Program-made: the position numbers and the translations under genes
The notes under the pieces: model-generated
Told to the model about the DNA's origin: nothing
The model's database searches: none
Seen by the model: the letters and a program-made list of their open reading frames with translations, nothing else
In this document: positions 3,764 through 32,000 of the stretch, one piece after another
Layout of the letters: each line of letters begins with the position of its first letter
Numbering within the stretch: the first letter of the stretch is position 1
Assembly (NCBI GenBank): GCA_021650915.1
Contig: CP091279.1
Location: forward strand, 2,700,001-2,732,000
DNA: 32,000 nt
Origin: Candidatus Brocadia sp.
Lineage (GTDB): Bacteria > Planctomycetota > Brocadiia > Brocadiales > Brocadiaceae
Direction: 5' to 3'

Positions 3764-3929
3764 AAGTGGGTTGTGATAAATTTGCCGAGAAAATAAGTTT
3801 TTATATAACAATACGATACGTCCAACCGTTGGAAAAAACACGAATAAACGCATAGTGTCTGTGCCTTATAAACCTTGCAACACTTTAGTTTTTTGAAAAA
3901 TTACTATAATAACGATGTTACCGCACCGT

Positions 3930-4003
3930 GTAGGGGCGAAGCATTTGCCATACATTGGCATACCTGTGTTCACGCCCCAAGCTGGCAAATGCTTCGCCCC
4001 TCC
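3930..4003. repeat. GTAG-headed long hairpin (stem AGGGGCGAAGCATTTGCCA)
   Basis: gtAGGGGCGAAGCATTTGCCA-32 nt loop-TGGCAAATGCTTCGCCCCTcc. The 19-bp stem is perfect. The whole element is the reverse-complement homologue of 31745-31818. Confidence 0.8.
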
Positions 4004-4153
4004 TTTTCAAAAAACTAACGCGTTACCGATGCTTTAATCCCGAAGGGATGTCATGATTATAGTATGTTGTTATAGTATTACCGTATAAAAACTTCTTTTT
4101 TTGTAAGTTTTTTCACAAATCCCTTTCAGGAGGTACCGGTTTTTATGAGTGAA

Positions 4154-4247
4154 AGATTGCTTCGCTTCACTCGCAATGACAACGTGCAGTGTGCCATCAA
4201 AGTGCATGGTCGCTGTCATTGCGAGGGCCTTTTCCGAAGCAATCTCC
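4154..4247. repeat. CATTGCGAGG/CGAAGCAATC-family repeat pair (composite unit Y; second copy 12848-12970)
   Basis: agattgcttcgcttcactcgcaatgaca (4154-4181) and tgtcattgcgagggccttttccgaagcaatctcc (4214-4247). Unit Y as a whole spans roughly 4165-4285. Its order and spacers match 12848-12970 in the same orientation. Confidence 0.75.
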
Positions 4248-4496
4248 CGCTTTCATAAGGAGATTTGGTTGCGGCCTTGCTGCGCTATGCAATTATGGTT
4301 AACCCTGTAGGGGTGGCATAGTATAGCTATTTTCCCGATATTTCACCCCTTACGGGGTTGAATATGGCGGCGCGTTTTTTCTATAATCATGTCATCCCTT
4401 CGGGATTTTTCAAAAAACTAACGCGTTGCCAAACCTTTCTACATTTCTGATTGTCGCTTTGTGATAGAGTAAACGCCTTAAATAAGTTGACAGGTG

Positions 4497-4628
4497 ATAG
4501 TCATTGAGAGCACATTCGCTTTACTCAGTGAAACTCCGTGAAGCAATCCCACCCTTGAGACTTCGTCGTGAGCTCAGACGAACGCTCAGTCGAACGATTG
4601 CTTCGGGCTAACGCCCTCGCAATGACAC
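4497..4628. repeat. CATTGCGAGG-family composite unit X (about 130 bp), reverse-complement copy of 12697-12860
   Basis: The reverse complement reads gtgtcattgcgagggcgttagcccgaagcaatcgttcgactgagc...tcacgacgaagtctcaagggtgggattgcttcac. Compare 12697 ggtcattgcgagggcgatagcccgaagcaatcgttcgactgagctcacgccgaagtcttaagggtggggttgctgag. Confidence 0.75.
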
Positions 4629-4681
4629 CTTTCCTTTTGCGTTTACTTTAATTAGGCCTTCGGCAACTTTTTTATCGTTAT

Positions 4682-4709
4682 GTAGAGGCAATTCATGAAT
4701 TGCCTCTAC
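4682..4709. repeat. GTAG...CTAC perfect palindrome
   Basis: GTAGAGGCAATTCatGAATTGCCTCTAC has 13-bp arms. It is preceded by the recurrent attaggccttcggcaactttt module (4651-4672). Confidence 0.7.
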
Positions 4710-4734
4710 AAGATTGAAATTCCTTAACATCTAG

Positions 4735-12169: not shown

Positions 12170-12380
12170 ATCACTTATCTCCTTTCTTAAAATTAGACTT
12201 CAAAAATTATTAACACAATCCGTAAAAAAATCTCGTATAGCGTTTCAATAAAATGTATATGGAAAAAAATGTCTTTGTAAGGAGTAAAGCGGTTGTGAAG
12301 CAGAAGTGAAGCAAACCCGGAGGGTTCCTCGCTGATACACTCAGAACAGGCCATTAATCCCTCGCTCGCAGAAAACTGAA

Positions 12381-12411
12381 GATTGCTTCGTCGTTCCTCC
12401 TCGCAATGACA
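12381..12411. repeat. CATTGCGAGG/CGAAGCAATC-family solo repeat (reverse orientation)
   Basis: gattgcttcgtcgttcctcctcgcaatgaca. Confidence 0.75.
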
Positions 12412-12696
12412 TTTTTATGATTACGTCATTTATTGATACCTAAATTCTGCAAATAAAACAGGACGGTAATATGCAACAGTCCATAGCTATTGGACTTGAT
12501 GTAATTGCAGTAGAGTTTTTCCTTCACTTTTTACGTGATGAAAAATTTTTCAAAAAAAGCTTCTGCTTCAATGAACACAAGGTTCAAGCGATGTAAGGAT
12601 AAATTCATTTGCAAAATTTAGGTGATATTATTATTTATAGGTCATGCTTGTATGAAATCTGTATATATAAAGTGAGTGTAATAAATATACCTGCAC

Positions 12697-12922
12697 GGTC
12701 ATTGCGAGGGCGATAGCCCGAAGCAATCGTTCGACTGAGCTCACGCCGAAGTCTTAAGGGTGGGGTTGCTGAGCCTGCTCCGAACGAATCTCAGCGAGGA
12801 ATCTTGCCGATAGTTTGCTTCGGCTTTGCCTCGCAACCGTTCCTCCTCGCAATGACAACGTACCGTATGTCGTCAAAGGTATAGCCAGTGTCATTGCGAG
12901 GGTTTTTTCCGAAGCAATCTCC
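12697..12922. repeat. Cluster of CATTGCGAGG-family repeats (unit X followed by unit Y)
   Basis: Copies are ggtcattgcgagggcgatagcccgaagcaatcg (12697-12729), gtttgcttcggctttgcctcgcaaccgttcctcctcgcaatgaca (12814-12856) and tgtcattgcgagggttttttccgaagcaatctcc (12889-12922). The last is identical over 33 nt to the reverse complement of 13403-13435. Confidence 0.8.
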
Positions 12923-13047
12923 CACTTTCACATTTCACAATGGAGAATTGGTTGCGACTTCGCTGCGCCAGGTATACTTATTTTTGTCTCTCACTATAAG
13001 TTGAGAACCGCCCTAATATTTTAGTATTTTGAAAGAACCTATTCTTT

Positions 13048-13080
13048 TGTCATTGCGAGGGTTTTGTCCGAAGCAATCTC
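13048..13080. repeat. Left 33-bp inverted repeat bracketing the GIY-YIG gene
   Basis: tgtcattgcgagggttttgtccgaagcaatctc has one mismatch to the reverse complement of 13403-13435. It overlaps the gene stop codon (13079-13081) by 2 nt. Confidence 0.85.
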
Positions 13081-13366
13081 ACAAACAATCATACAAATCC
13101 TTCCATCCCGCATTCATTCCATTAATTAATTCTAGTTTCTTGGCCATGGAGCCACCTTTAATTTGCTTCTCTCGGAATATGGCATTTTTCACGTCACGAA
13201 ATAGTTCGTAATATACCAACTTGGTGACATTATACTTTTTTGTAAATCCTTCGACCCGCTTCTCTTTGTGCACATATACTCTCCTTTTGAGATCATTCGT
13301 TACCCCCGTATAAAGCACCGTGTTGTTTTTATTCGTCATTATGTAAACGGAGTATATTTTATCCAT
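13079..13366 (-). CDS. GIY-YIG nuclease family protein (small stand-alone URI-domain type, COG2827-like)
   Basis: 95-aa ORF reading MDKIYSVYIMTNKNNTVLYTGVTNDLKRRVYVHKEKRVEGFTKKYNVTKLVYYELF...REKQIKGGSMAKKLELINGMNAGWKDLY. It contains the GIY (IYSVY) and YIG (LYTG) elements, the conserved Arg, and the FTKKY / EKQIK blocks typical of this family. Confidence 0.85.
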   Translation of the reverse strand: MDKIYSVYIMTNKNNTVLYTGVTNDLKRRVYVHKEKRVEGFTKKYNVTKLVYYELFRDVKNAIFREKQIKGGSMAKKLELINGMNAGWKDLYDCL

Positions 13367-13402
13367 TACAATTACCTTGACTAAGTCTTGCGGCTTTAAA
13401 AG

Positions 13403-13435
13403 GAGATTGCTTCGGAAAAAACCCTCGCAATGACA
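13403..13435. repeat. Right 33-bp inverted repeat bracketing the GIY-YIG gene
   Basis: gagattgcttcggaaaaaaccctcgcaatgaca. Its reverse complement is tgtcattgcgagggttttttccgaagcaatctc. Confidence 0.85.
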
Positions 13436-13493
13436 GTTTTGTGTTTACTTATTTGTAAGACATTGCACGAAATCGGCAAATAAATCAGCCGCT

Positions 13494-13814
13494 GTAACAC
13501 TTTGGTTTTTTGAAATCCCTCTGTGGTAAAATCCTTATATACTCCATAGGCTTACAATTTGTGATTTATAGTAATTCAACACGGACAAACAGAATTTGTC
13601 CATGCCACCTTATTATCAATTTAAAATTCACATTTTATGAGCATCTTGAGTATAGATTCTTCATTCCGCTCCGCTTCATGCAGAATGACACGACATGCAT
13701 GTCATTCTGAGGACGATAGGACGAAGAATCTCTGCGATGTTCAGATGCTCAAGGTATAAGAATTTTGCCAAATATGCTGGAGTATCTGCGATTTTTCAAA
13801 TAACAAATTGTTAC
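13494..13814. mobile_element. MITE-like element, 321 bp, GTAA-type TIRs with two hairpin cargo modules
   Basis: Left TIR is gtaacactttggttttttgaaat (13494-13516). The reverse complement of the right end (13791-13814) is gtaacaatttgttatttgaaaaat. Cargo 1 is the tatactc...gagtata module (13538-13654), near-identical to 26532-26648. Cargo 2 is agattcttc...cagaatgacacgacatgcatgtcattctg...gaagaatct (13655-13733), a nested hairpin. No clear target-site duplication was seen. Confidence 0.65.
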
Positions 13815-13875
13815 CGTCCACGTAAAAACTCAAGGCGTTTGTGCCGATGCTTTCGTGCGCGCGAGCCGTACACCT

Positions 13876-16169: not shown

Positions 16170-16385
16170 GACTGTTTTCCTTTCGTTTTGGTTGTAGTCT
16201 TCTGTAAGAATTCATCCTGGTGAGCATTGTATACCCATAATTTTCTATGACATACCGTTTTTTGATGATACGACATACGGGAAAAAACTCTTTTGACTGC
16301 TTTTACGTTATCCTCCTTTCATTCCGGTTATACCCAAAGAGTTCTCAATCCGTGAATATTCGACTCGATATACAGGGTGGCATGG

Positions 16386-16612
16386 ACAAACTCCGTTTGT
16401 CCGTGTTGAAATTGGGCGATGTCGTTTATTAAGCATCCATTTTGAGATTTGAATAAACCAACCAAGACTGACCATTGTAATCGTCAAGCATAAACGGGAT
16501 TATAAAAACACGGACAAGCACAGCTTGTCCGTGCCACCCCATGAGATATTGATAACTCTGTATCAAGTTTATAAATCACAAATTGTGAGCCTCTTGAGTA
16601 TAGCATTATTAA
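16386..16612. repeat. Rearranged/degenerate copy of the tatactc...gagtata module
   Basis: ggtggcatggacaaactccgtttgtccgtgttgaa (16386-16420) is the reverse complement of the core at 26569-26603. A second, diverged core sits at 16517-16548. tttataaatcacaaattgtgagcctcttgagtata (16578-16612) is the inverted left end. Confidence 0.6.
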
Positions 16613-16646
16613 AATAGGCCTTCGGTTACTTTATTTGAGGTCATAC

Positions 16647-16721
16647 GTAGGGGCGAAGCATTTGCTGAGATTAAATTTGAATGCCGTCTTATCCCTTGGA
16701 CAGCAAATGCTTCGCCCCTAC
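16647..16721. repeat. GTAG-headed long hairpin (stem GTAGGGGCGAAGCATTTGCTG)
   Basis: GTAGGGGCGAAGCATTTGCTG-33 nt-CAGCAAATGCTTCGCCCCTAC, preceded by the aggccttcggttactttatttg module. The loop is the reverse complement of the loop at 19105-19179. Confidence 0.8.
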
Positions 16722-16745
16722 TATAGTAAACGCAAAAAGAAAGTT

Positions 16746-16839
16746 GTCCTTGCGAACGAAGTGAAGCAATCCAAATCATAGAGATTGCTTCGGGCTAAAG
16801 TTTATCCTGAGTAATAACGAAGGACCCTCGCAATGACAC
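16746..16839. repeat. CATTGCGAGG-family repeats (diverged pair)
   Basis: gtccttgcgaacgaagtgaagcaatcc (16746-16772), and gagattgcttcgggctaaag...gaccctcgcaatgacac (16781-16839) with a 20-nt insertion. Confidence 0.65.
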
Positions 16840-16900
16840 GTGCATGGATACTTATTTATTACGTTTACTGTAAATATGTCAAAATTATCTTTGGAAGACT

Positions 16901-17970: not shown

Positions 17971-18093
17971 AATTTCCCAACCCGAACGAGTCGGAAAAGA
18001 AATACGGATAGGAGCAGATTTCAAACCTGCCCCTACACAGTGTGAAAAAAACATTTTTGCCGAAAAGGTCAAAATATTTTTTATTAGACACTA
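17971..18093 (+). repeat. 120-bp three-copy element, copy A (most diverged)
   Basis: aatttcccaacccgaacgagtcggaaaagaaatacgg-ataggagcagatttcaaacctgcccctac-acagtgtgaaaaaaacatttttgccgaaaaggtcaaaatattttttattagacacta. Confidence 0.8.
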
Positions 18094-19104: not shown

Positions 19105-19179
19105 GTAGGGGCGAAGCATTTGCTGTCCAGGATATAAGATGACATTCAAATCCGGTATCAGCAAATGCTTCGCCCCTAC
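19105..19179. repeat. GTAG-headed long hairpin, loop inverted relative to 16647-16721
   Basis: GTAGGGGCGAAGCATTTGCTG-33 nt-CAGCAAATGCTTCGCCCCTAC, preceded by aggccttcggctactttgtttg in the same orientation as at 16614. Confidence 0.8.
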
Positions 19180-19190
19180 AACAAACATTG

Positions 19191-19312
19191 AAATTCCCAA
19201 CCCGAACGAGTCGGAAAAGAAATACGGTAGGGGCAGGTTTCAAACCTGCCCCTACACAATGTGAAAAAAACATTTTTGCCGAAAATGTCAAAATATTTTT
19301 TATTAGACACTA
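19191..19312 (+). repeat. 120-bp three-copy element, copy B
   Basis: Near-identical to 27672-27788. It contains GTAGGGGCAGGTTTCAAACCTGCCCCTAC (19227-19255). Confidence 0.85.
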
Positions 19313-26023: not shown

Positions 26024-26531
26024 TGTTAAAGAATCCCTCCGATACCGAAGATATTACCCCCATCAAGCCCTTCTTTCGGGCTGCTCCAGGAACTATTCAA
26101 AGTGATTGCGCTGTCCAGTGCGTATTGCCTGATACGAGGGTTCACGTCAAGAAAAACCGGGCATCGGCATAGCGTAGCTTCACCATTCGCACTGTTGTTG
26201 TCCGGGAACGCCTATTCATAACATAAACGATATTGTTTGCCTAGCAAAATATTTATATTACCCATAGACCGGAACGGACCGGAAGAGCGCCAGGAGATTG
26301 GTAGTGTTAAAATCTTTTCCAAAGACTTACGTAAAGTGAAATACGAAACTCTGTAAAAATTATTTTTACAGAAGAGGCGCTTCTGGCTTTTGATAGCGCC
26401 ACCTTCATCATCAGATCTCCCCGATTTATGTTAAAGCGCCTGCGTTTATATTTGACGTTGCCACCGGTCTTTCGCTGATTTTGTGCAACGGTTTCGATGG
26501 ATTACCCTTGCGCTTCCCGTTGAGAGTATGA

Positions 26532-26648
26532 TATACTCTACAGCCTCACAATTTGTGATTTATAGCAGTTCAACACGGACAAACAGAGTTTGTCCATGCC
26601 ACCATATTATCAATTTAAAATTCACATTTTATGAACATCTTGAGTATA
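26532..26648. repeat. tatactc...gagtata hairpin module (second full copy)
   Basis: tatactctacagcctcacaatttgtgatttatagcagttcaacacGGACAAACagaGTTTGTCCatgccaccatattatcaatttaaaattcacattttatgaacatcttgagtata. It is near-identical to 13538-13654. Confidence 0.8.
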
Positions 26649-27671: not shown

Positions 27672-27788
27672 CCCAACCCGAACGAGTCGGAAGAGAAATA
27701 CGGTAGGGGCAGGTTTCAAACCGGCCCCTACACAGTGTGAAAAAAACATTTTTGCCGAAAATGTCAAAATATTTTTTATTAGACACTA
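27672..27788 (+). repeat. 120-bp three-copy element, copy C, abutting the kinase start codon
   Basis: cccaacccgaacgagtcggaagagaaatacggGTAGGGGCAGGTTTCAAACCGGCCCCTACacagtgtgaaaaaaacatttttgccgaaaatgtcaaaatattttttattagacacta. The last A is the A of ATG 27788. Confidence 0.85.
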
Positions 27789-31720: not shown

Positions 31721-31871
31721 GTAACACTTTAGTTTTTTGAAAAGGTAGGGGCGAAGCATTTGCCTGCTTGGGGTGTGCAGGCATTTATGCCAATTGATGG
31801 CAAATGCTTCGCCCCTACACCGTGCGGAAACATCGTTGTTGTTGCCATTTTTCAAAAAATTAAATTGTTAC
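31721..31871. mobile_element. MITE-like element, 151 bp, GTAA-type TIRs, GTAG-hairpin cargo, 8-bp target-site duplication
   Basis: Left TIR is gtaacactttagttttttgaaaag (31721-31744). The reverse complement of the right end (31847-31871) is gtaacaatttaattttttgaaaaat. The cargo hairpin is GTAGGGGCGAAGCATTTGCC...GGCAAATGCTTCGCCCCTAC (31745-31818). The direct repeat aaactttt immediately flanks both ends (31713-31720 and 31872-31879). The whole element is a reverse-complement homologue of 3877-4026. Confidence 0.8.
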
Positions 31872-32000
31872 AAACTTTTTTATATGAGATAAATATATTC
31901 GGTGTACAGAAAATCTCTGCCCGCTTTTTTCAATGAAAGGTTGTGCTGCGAGACACCAAAAGTTATGATACTATGCGGAACGCCATTGGCATATTGAAGC

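Follow-up and report, generated by a model that had tools for sequence, protein, structure and literature searches.

We analyzed a 32,000-nt stretch of the genome of the anammox planctomycete Candidatus Brocadia sp. (GenBank assembly GCA_021650915.1, contig CP091279.1, positions 2,700,001 to 2,732,000 of the forward strand; hereafter the window, to whose numbering all coordinates refer unless a locus is named), in which a small gene for a GIY-YIG nuclease, here called ssn, lies between inverted copies of a hairpin repeat. The open reading frame (ORF) is bracketed by two inverted 33-nt copies of TGTCATTGCGAGG..CGAAGCAATCTC, which match at 32 of 33 positions, and the resulting repeat-ssn-repeat unit (13048–13435, hereafter the cassette) is 388 bp long. 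The parts of the cassette and its conserved surroundings are the following:

13079–13366, minus strand: ssn gene, an ORF for a single-domain GIY-YIG nuclease of 95 amino acids (aa)
13403–13435, minus strand: upstream repeat, on the 5' side of the gene, TGTCATTGCGAGGGTTTTTTCCGAAGCAATCTC, with its GTCA end pointing outward
13048–13080, plus strand: downstream repeat, on the 3' side of the gene, TGTCATTGCGAGGGTTTTGTCCGAAGCAATCTC, inverted relative to the upstream copy
13367–13402, minus strand: spacer or 5' untranslated region, 36 nt between the upstream repeat and the ATG, conserved in the related loci L004, L098 and L102
13018–13047: flankD, a conserved extension of about 30 nt past the downstream repeat that travels with the element
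13436–13477: flankU, a conserved extension of about 40 nt 5' of the upstream repeat, with AAATRAGTRARCAYAMAAC beside TGTCATT and CCGATTTC..GCAA before it

An initial annotation of this DNA, made from its letters alone, had described the 95-aa GIY-YIG ORF at 13079–13366 between inverted 33-mers that differ at 1 of 33 positions, as well as the 388-bp unit, and all of this is present in the sequence. The copy that it reported at 12889–12921 indeed has the sequence of the right-hand repeat (100% complementarity over 34 nt), and every solo or clustered site that it named holds a copy of the repeat. To this we add a degenerate long-loop copy (4501–4548, plus strand), a pair of repeats of a second subtype, the flanking extensions, and the overlap of the TGA stop codon of ssn with the downstream repeat, which is the left repeat of the window.

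The repeat has a constant anatomy: a 5' GTC, a 5-bp basal stem (ATTGC/GCAAT), a GAG/GAA internal loop, a free distal hairpin and a 3' C. GTCATTGCGAG and GAAGCAATC are fixed, and the distal part between them is freely variable, with a length of 4 nt to over 40 nt; across loci the consensus is yTGTCATTGCGAG-(variable)-CGAAGCAATCTC. Folding of the repeat as single-stranded DNA (ssDNA) gives the expected shape, with the 5-bp basal stem, the GAG/GAA internal loop and a distal stem-loop. We counted 7 exact copies of the core CATTGCGAGG-N(1-30)-GAAGCAATC in the window, compared to 0.00 expected from 100 shuffles. When degenerate copies are included, the window holds 12 copies of this main type and 2 of the second subtype, all intergenic, and all 14 fall in three intergenic regions (3854–4734, 12170–13875 and 16170–16900). 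The main-type copies, which each read GTC-ATTGC...GCAAT-C, are those of the cassette itself (13049–13078 on the plus strand and 13405–13434 on the minus strand) and those listed in the last section.

The nuclease and the published Ssn system

A Pfam search finds GIY-YIG (PF01541, E = 1.4e-16, residues 5–75) as the sole domain of the 95-aa ssn product, with no added DNA-binding domain; TIGR01453 scores 16.7 bits against a cut-off of 56 bits. By BLASTP, the protein aligns with a 94-aa ORF of Neisseria gonorrhoeae over 87 gapless residues at 49% identity (E = 7e-32), and residues Y8, Y19, R29, H33 and E66 are all matched in this homologue. In a tblastn search of a 7.3-Gb database the same pair reaches E = 1e-19. 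Our reference is an N. gonorrhoeae chromosome that stands as a mislabelled record in a plasmid collection; it holds this one 94-aa GIY-YIG ORF only, embedded among canonical copies of the Neisseria repeat NTS. The best match among solved structures, the UPF0213 protein 1zg2 (E = 0.0075), is far weaker than the Neisseria homologue. Comparison with the copies in Brocadia, Kuenenia and Jettenia gives a ratio of nonsynonymous to synonymous divergence (dN/dS) of 0.06–0.11, at a synonymous divergence (dS) of up to 1.1; ssn is under strong purifying selection in anammox bacteria. The family is large, with 11,454 clusters at 50% identity at E ≤ 1e-3 and 3,777 at E ≤ 1e-10.

Proteins of this kind have been described as Ssn, site-specific ssDNA endonucleases of about 94 aa with a single GIY-YIG domain (CDD cd10448; Chenal et al., Nat Commun 2025, PMC11893778). 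SsnA enzymes bind and cut ssDNA beside an oriented hairpin repeat, and act on neither double-stranded DNA (dsDNA) nor RNA; the repeat is called NTS in Neisseria (CGTCATTCCCGCGMAVGCGGGAATCYRG) and SRM in general (PMC11893778). The GTC upstream of the palindrome is most critical for cleavage and the C after the palindrome for binding (PMC11893778). Genes of the family typically lie between copies of their own repeat; in vitro, each of four homologues cut the repeat that flanks its gene, and in N. meningitidis the enzyme reduces the integration of NTS-bearing transforming DNA (PMC11893778). Two oligonucleotides that carry half an NTS each can reconstitute the substrate (PMC11893778), which fits the free distal part and the fixed halves of the repeat in the window. 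The authors liken NTS-ssnA-NTS to an insertion sequence, compare it to IS200/IS605 and REP/RAYT, and offer the domestication of a mobile element as a hypothesis (PMC11893778). The premise of the initial annotation, that no bacterial element bounded by repeats is known to have a GIY-YIG gene as its only gene, was therefore outdated, as Ssn/SRM had been published in March 2025, and its inference coincides with the hypothesis that these authors put forward.

The window element has the traits of this system: a single domain in a protein of about 94 aa, homology to SsnA at better than the E < 1e-10 used in the paper (PMC11893778), hairpin repeats of 20–50 nt on both sides, oriented by GTC at the 5' end and C at the 3' end, and further intergenic copies, many of them and often in alternating orientation. 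As in the published system, the stem sequence varies by nuclease clade. The evidence supports that the element belongs to the Ssn/SRM kind, judging from its sequence, with one test failed: the search pattern that the authors derived from 29 genomes, HGTCWYN(0-2)YYVSBRHN(0-5)WNVSBRGN(0-2)RNCYNB (PMC11893778), has 0 matches in the window in our own implementation. The structural difference lies in the stem, which in the published repeats is a continuous GC-rich helix of 9–10 bp, whereas in the window a 5-bp basal stem is followed by the GAG/GAA loop and a distal hairpin. The window also differs in its host, an anammox planctomycete, in an activity that is predicted rather than measured, and in the outward GTCA ends of its flanking repeats, as the nearest copies at the N. 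gonorrhoeae locus point inward. The string 'Planctomycet' is absent from the text of PMC11893778, and a literature search with the motif string returned unrelated primer matches only.

What is new here is a subtype of the repeat, GTCATTGCGAG..GAAGCAATC, that lies outside the published SRM pattern and flanks homologues in more than 15 phyla. Its hosts include Planctomycetota, Chloroflexota, Nitrospirota, Cyanobacteria, Patescibacteria, Bacteroidota and others. Of all Ssn repeat subtypes, the one that escapes the published pattern may thus have the widest distribution, and the published shares of ssn genes with cognate repeats, 71% and 42% (PMC11893778), may consequently be too low. The subtype further suggests that the GTC, the 3' C, a basal stem of 5 bp and a small internal loop are all that Ssn needs for recognition, and that any distal hairpin is tolerated, a tolerance that would be useful for designing tools that cut ssDNA.

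Linkage and covariation of nuclease and repeat

A genome scan yielded 80 loci homologous to ssn (56–88% protein identity) from more than 15 phyla, which span Planctomycetota, Chloroflexota, Nitrospirota, Cyanobacteria, Desulfobacterota, WOR-3, Omnitrophota, Patescibacteria, Bacteroidota, Proteobacteria and others. For B. pituitae AP021856 the scan gave no close ssn match. We defined a strict, sequence-agnostic repeat as GTC, any 5 nt, G, a loop, the exact complement of the 5 nt and then C. The initial annotation held that paralogues lacking flanking repeats would speak against a link between nuclease and repeat; at 78 of the 80 loci at least one strict repeat lies within 200 nt of the gene. 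The density of strict repeats within these 200 nt is 7.0 per kb, compared to 0.37 per kb elsewhere in the same loci, a 19-fold difference. Strict repeats occur on both sides (upstream on the plus strand, downstream on the minus strand) at 53 loci, and hairpin repeats flank the gene on both sides at 53–62. At most loci the downstream copy begins 3–11 nt past the stop codon; the upstream copy ends 10–50 nt ahead of the start codon. Outward GTCA ends are the commonest layout (38/80), and the inward layout of the Neisseria type is found at 8 loci. At the N. gonorrhoeae locus itself (L088), the nearest NTS copies, 1358–1385 and 1779–1806, face inward (upstream minus, downstream plus).

The pairing extends to the sequence of the stem. 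In a neighbor-joining tree of the proteins, which at 95 aa resolves coarse groupings only, ATTCC, ATCCC, ATCCT and ACCCC stems fall in a proteobacterial clade that includes Neisseria, ATTCT and ATCCT stems in an Omnitrophota clade (ATTCT flanks the ssn homologues of L070 and L078), and the ATTGC stem in a large clade that holds the window protein. Repeat stem type follows nuclease clade. By comparison, a UPF0213-type GIY-YIG gene of Subdoligranulum sits in an operon without such repeats. Pairing within the stem was examined without presupposing it, by scoring non-canonical 5' halves for their own complement versus the canonical 3' half. A variant 5' half has its own exact complement downstream in 63 of 155 cases, compared to about 3 expected, and the canonical 3' half in only 21; the variant stems ACTGC (4/4), ATTGT (5/5) and ATTCC (10/10) pair correctly throughout. 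Together, these observations support a pairing of nuclease and repeat that is real, specific and evolutionarily conserved. Among 2.9 million viral contigs we found only 6 weak relatives, with repeats of an alphaproteobacterial type, and no sign of phage carriage.

Likeness to other known systems is partial. The initial annotation had proposed a REP/RAYT-like pairing with a different nuclease. The pairing stands, being real, linked and conserved, and as an analogy the proposal is sound; the likeness to REP/REPIN-RAYT (PMC2817692, PMC3116915) is one of architecture only: a small gene bracketed by inverted hairpin repeats that are also dispersed as intergenic singlets and doublets, mosaic BIME-like clusters with conserved spacers, and an enzyme that recognizes, or in the window would recognize, a hairpin in ssDNA. 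The window enzyme, however, is a GIY-YIG hydrolase and not an HUH/Y1 transposase (PF01797 is not matched), a covalent tyrosine intermediate would not be expected, and the conserved 5' bases are GTC instead of the GTAG of REP. With IS200/IS605 (TnpA, 'peel and paste') it would share the dependence on ssDNA hairpins and cleavage a short distance from the hairpin, and the block missing from the gene-less allele described below is bounded by two hairpins of the same orientation, as are IS200/IS605 ends. In contrast to these elements, it has no TnpA, near-identical inverted copies flank its gene instead of left and right ends on the same strand, and we found no evidence of circular ssDNA intermediates. 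The homing endonucleases I-TevI and Seg have the GIY-YIG core in common with the window protein, and a gene of this kind may aid its own spread by site-specific cutting; the window protein differs in having no DNA-binding domain or linker, in its expected targets, ssDNA hairpins and not dsDNA alleles, and in lying in neither an intron nor a phage. UPF0213/YhbQ proteins (PDB 1zg2) are likewise stand-alone GIY-YIG proteins of about 100 aa, and differ in the distance of the match and, in the Subdoligranulum example, in the operon setting without flanking repeats.

Predicted function and possible mobility of the cassette

We propose that the ssn product is an Ssn-family ssDNA endonuclease and that the 33-nt repeats are its cognate SRMs, with a probability of roughly 0.8. 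This reading is carried by the homology, the presence of the critical nucleotides, the linkage of gene and repeat across phyla, the covariation of the stems and purifying selection; the biochemistry in Brocadia and the biological role would follow by analogy. By homology to the tested Neisseria and Wolbachia enzymes, the protein would bind the folded repeat only in ssDNA, as it arises during replication, transformation, conjugation or repair. The cut would fall a few nt 5' of GTC on the repeat strand and spare the complementary strand. As the gene lies between two of its own predicted target sites, two cuts would be expected at the locus, just outside the cassette and one per strand, and the solo and doublet copies would be further genomic targets. 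The most likely role, in our view, is control of ssDNA recombination at repeat-marked loci, possibly together with self-propagation of the cassette.

Several points weigh against this proposal. The published pattern has no match in the window, although the same script finds 9, 4, 5, 2 and 4 matches in the loci of Neisseria, Shinella, Rhizobium, Aeromonas and Azospirillum; since the pattern is a search tool and not a definition, we take the failure to mark a subtype and not an exclusion. The hairpins are weak as naked ssDNA (−2 to −8 kcal/mol), with z-scores mostly no better than those of shuffles. Folding may therefore need the protein, and because of these energies we argue the structure from covariation and not from stability. 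The N. gonorrhoeae ORF is probably the orthologue of the characterized NMV_0044, judging from its size, domain, NTS flanks and single genomic copy. Finally, the role in Neisseria, restricting transformation, need not hold in anammox bacteria.

One alternative is that the hairpins act as RNA, as terminators, mRNA stabilizers or regulators, and that the link to a nuclease at the DNA level is secondary. Since the gene has the upstream repeat 10–50 nt ahead of its start codon and the downstream repeat directly against its stop codon, its transcript probably includes both, and stem covariation alone cannot tell RNA from ssDNA. We nevertheless regard this as very improbable, given that no Rfam family reaches its gathering score in the window and 16 related loci, that there are no T-run terminators and folding energies are weak, that, relative to neighboring genes, copies of either orientation are found, and that SsnA does not bind RNA and the repeat acts strand-specifically as ssDNA (PMC11893778). 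Another is that the repeats belong to a REP-like family of their own, for whose spread a different enzyme encoded elsewhere in the genome, such as a Y1 transposase or RAYT, is responsible, with the gene lying between two copies by chance. Many unrelated repeat families populate the intergenic regions of the window, so repeats around a small gene would be unsurprising. This explanation is effectively refuted by linkage at 78 of 80 loci in more than 15 phyla with 19-fold local enrichment, by the change of stem type with nuclease clade, by homologues that cut their own flanking repeats in vitro (PMC11893778), and by the lack of any transposase gene in the window.

Whether the cassette also moves is a separate matter, on which the anammox genomes bear. 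The window itself matches Candidatus Brocadia GCA_000987375.1 at 99.96% identity over 8.3 kb. The cassette occupies the same patatin/DUF3313 site in three Brocadia species (the window, B. carolinensis and GCA_026647515.1; dS ~0.35). The upstream repeat is identical in GCA_026647515.1 (L098), and the basal parts of both flanking repeats are invariant among the Kuenenia, Jettenia and Brocadia copies, at dS up to 1.1. The start codon of ssn in B. carolinensis (L004, 5001–5275) is changed (ACG/GTG context), and a loss of 4 nt toward the 3' end puts the gene out of frame. The repeats on either side are intact, and the gene is probably decaying while its repeats persist. Between the window and the Kuenenia and Jettenia copies, which lie in other genomic contexts, homology does not go beyond the repeats. 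Homology to the window extends through flankD to 13022 in L098 and to 13018 in GCA_964490485.1 (L102); flankU matches L102 1031–1049. In L102 the cassette lies downstream of a Chalcone_3 gene and not upstream of DUF3313, and this locus also contains a gene-less doublet (a repeat, 8 nt and an inverted repeat) with the outer extensions of the cassette, with flankD following at 1127–1160.

The most informative comparison is Brocadia sp. GCA_021646415.1 (L111), in which, as in an independent Logan assembly, patatin and DUF3313 are separated by 454 nt and no nuclease gene. L111 3558–4000 aligns with window 12260–13477 as an orthologous spacer with a single repeat. The left flank of this repeat is that of the upstream repeat in the window (13436–13477, matched by L111 3600–3642), and its loop and right flank are those of the window copy at 12381–12410. 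The extra block relative to L111 measures 1,024 nt in the window (12412–13435) and 435 nt in L098, and each runs from the 5' edge of one repeat to the 5' edge of another in the same orientation; the two direct repeats that bound it share 13 identical nt and a similar extension of about 20 nt. The edges of the block coincide with the position where Ssn would be expected to cut, and equally with the expected product of recombination between direct repeats. In L111 the single repeat is followed by a degenerate inverted repeat and the flankD extension, which makes the ssn-less allele look like a gene-less doublet. In small samples, ssn-bearing loci carry 6–8 strict repeats per 4–12 kb and ssn-less loci 0–1. 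Filled and empty sites, which the initial annotation had proposed to look for, are found in part: there is a gene-less allele, and there are no target-site duplications or clean insertion junctions, as intergenic regions are unalignable between species. The orthologous intergenic regions of B. carolinensis and GCA_026647515.1 could not be aligned, with wholly different repeat sets, and we found no empty site there.

It is worth asking if the repeat-ssn-repeat cassette is an active, autonomous mobile element, mobilized by Ssn through ssDNA cuts 5' of the repeats, with gene-less doublets as non-autonomous derivatives and new copies landing beside existing repeats. This overlaps with our proposal and does not exclude it. 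The inverted-repeat architecture with GTCA outward, the end of homology with Kuenenia and Jettenia at the repeats, the other cassette position in L102 with its gene-less doublet of terminal inverted repeats 8 nt apart, the repeat-bounded gene-less allele in two independent assemblies, the association of repeat-rich loci with ssn, and a protein identity of 60–78% over more than 15 phyla, which suggests horizontal spread, would all fit. GIY-YIG enzymes are, to our knowledge, hydrolytic nucleases, and we know of no strand-transfer or covalent-intermediate chemistry among them. Joining would consequently need host functions. The shared site in three Brocadia species suggests stable vertical inheritance, strong purifying selection fits a gene useful to the host, and homologous recombination between the two direct repeats would account for the empty allele equally well. 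The missing target-site duplications and clean junctions and the small number of weak viral relatives (6) also count against movement. Mobility is plausible, with circumstantial support and no proof, and an active element of this kind seems to us unlikely on balance. The suggestion of the initial annotation that the nuclease generates or mobilizes the repeats is thus still hypothetical, as the sole demonstrated biology is the restriction of NTS-bearing transforming ssDNA in Neisseria. We are more doubtful still of the broader claim, taken jointly, that the cassette belongs to a new class of transposon, is still active and propagates itself by means of a hydrolytic GIY-YIG nuclease for ssDNA, inserts or excises at the cleavage position just 5' of existing repeats, leaves single repeats or gene-less doublets behind and has crossed more than 15 bacterial phyla. 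Were it true, the presence/absence allele in Brocadia would be its first footprint, mobility having been raised in the Ssn paper as a hypothesis only. In either case, the ssn-less allele at the orthologous site, bounded by repeats of the same orientation, is an informative and concrete footprint for deciding whether such cassettes move or only recombine.

Other repeats and minor observations

The remaining repeats of the window are listed here:

4155–4244: back-to-back pair, short copy 4155–4180 (minus) and copy 4215–4244 (plus), with a conserved 35-nt spacer
4501–4626: doublet with outward GTCA ends, long-loop degenerate copy 4501–4548 (plus) and copy 4596–4626 (minus)
12381–12410, minus strand: solo repeat, GTCATTGCGAGGAGGAACGACGAAGCAATC, oriented as the upstream repeat
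12698–12856: doublet with outward GTCA ends, 12698–12728 (plus) and degenerate copy 12813–12856 (minus), with a spacer of about 85 nt
12890–12919, plus strand: solo repeat, same sequence as the upstream repeat
16746–16837: doublet, degenerate short copy 16746–16771 (plus) and long-loop copy 16783–16837 (minus)
13655–13730: second-subtype pair (GTCATTCTG..GAAGAATC; basal stem ATTCT/AGAAT), 13655–13689 (minus) and 13701–13730 (plus)
17977–18093, 19196–19312 and 27672–27788: another repeat family
13537–13654 with 26531–26648, and 3870–4014 with 31734–31878: other repeat families, paired copies
1068–1198 with 4286–4417, and 16647–16721 with 19105–19179: other repeat families, paired copies

Several of these copies are related beyond the repeat itself. 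The 35-nt spacer of the pair at 4155–4244 recurs at 12846–12921 and directly upstream of ssn in L098, where 5764–5965 matches window 4071–4247. The doublet at 12698–12856 is homologous to that at 4501–4626 (the inverted pairs are 98% and 91% identical), and a conserved tail of about 50 nt after 12890–12919 is common to 4215–4290. The solo repeat at 12381–12410 is the far boundary of the 1,024-nt block absent from GCA_021646415.1. The long-loop copy at 4501–4548 (GAGCACATTCG..CTCAGTG..CTCCG.GAAGCAATCC) shares about 80% identity with the repeat upstream of ssn in a deltaproteobacterial metagenome-assembled genome, that of a Smithella (L033), which implies that particular distal-loop variants are kept across phyla, though the loop is otherwise free to vary; the same variant occurs in L098 (5850–5899). 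The ATTCT-type pair sits 220 nt from the cassette and has no cognate nuclease gene in the window. Copies of this type are also found in L098, L102 and B. pituitae (L110), and the Brocadia genome may hold a second ssn paralogue or orphan ATTCT repeats.

The window encodes no second copy or remnant of ssn and no transposase of any kind, and the neighbors of ssn are chromosomal housekeeping genes. AAGG sits 9 nt ahead of the start codon, within the 36-nt spacer, which is too short to hold a promoter. Our scan of the locus for promoters and terminators gave nothing above shuffles, with no T-run terminators and no convincing promoter. An exact-protein lookup found no record of the 95-aa product in protein collections. 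Independent Logan short-read contigs that are 100% identical to the window (L081–L087) end at or near repeats (positions 12410, 12509 and 13702), four of them (L081–L084) at 13702 and one at 12410. Contigs that stop at repeats fit a high genomic copy number and account for the absence of the exact product from the collections. For anammox genomics it matters that short-read assemblies break off at the repeats and that spurious ORFs arise from their translation. Such ORFs run through repeats at 12754–12931 and 12815–13024, with translations that hold VIARRNGCEAKPKQ or SLRGG, and some database proteins (e.g. P0006) carry extra N-terminal residues that stem from translated repeats. The nuclease itself is annotated in places as an 86-aa protein that lacks the first GIY strand (L085).

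Two candidates were set aside. P0121 (2,350 aa), the second-best match in a representative search, was rejected as a relative: it is a 41-fold tandem repeat of a 57-aa unit, and its match to nuclease residues 14–36 is summed weak similarity (GVKNDVKRRAKFH versus GVTNDLKRRVYVH). At a permissive threshold, the Rfam family Clostridiales-1 (RF01699) matches 12620–12736 on the plus strand (21.6 bits, compared to a gathering score of 48 bits; E = 0.014–0.054). Most of the score comes from the 3' hairpin of the model (GAUUGC-GGGAG-stem-CGGAGCAAUC), which is repeat-like. The likeness may be chance, or RF01699 may be an orphan motif with an Ssn-type hairpin; we did not find the motif beside GIY-YIG genes in two Firmicutes loci.

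Apart from the Ssn-type repeats, the window contains at least five other, unrelated intergenic repeat families in direct or inverted copies, with units of 117, 118, 145, about 130 and 75 nt. Small repeats make up a mosaic in the intergenic space of Brocadia, and from one species to the next its content is replaced completely. A perfect hairpin, GTAGGGGCAGGTTTCAAACC(T/G)GCCCCTAC, is found at 19227 and again at 27703.

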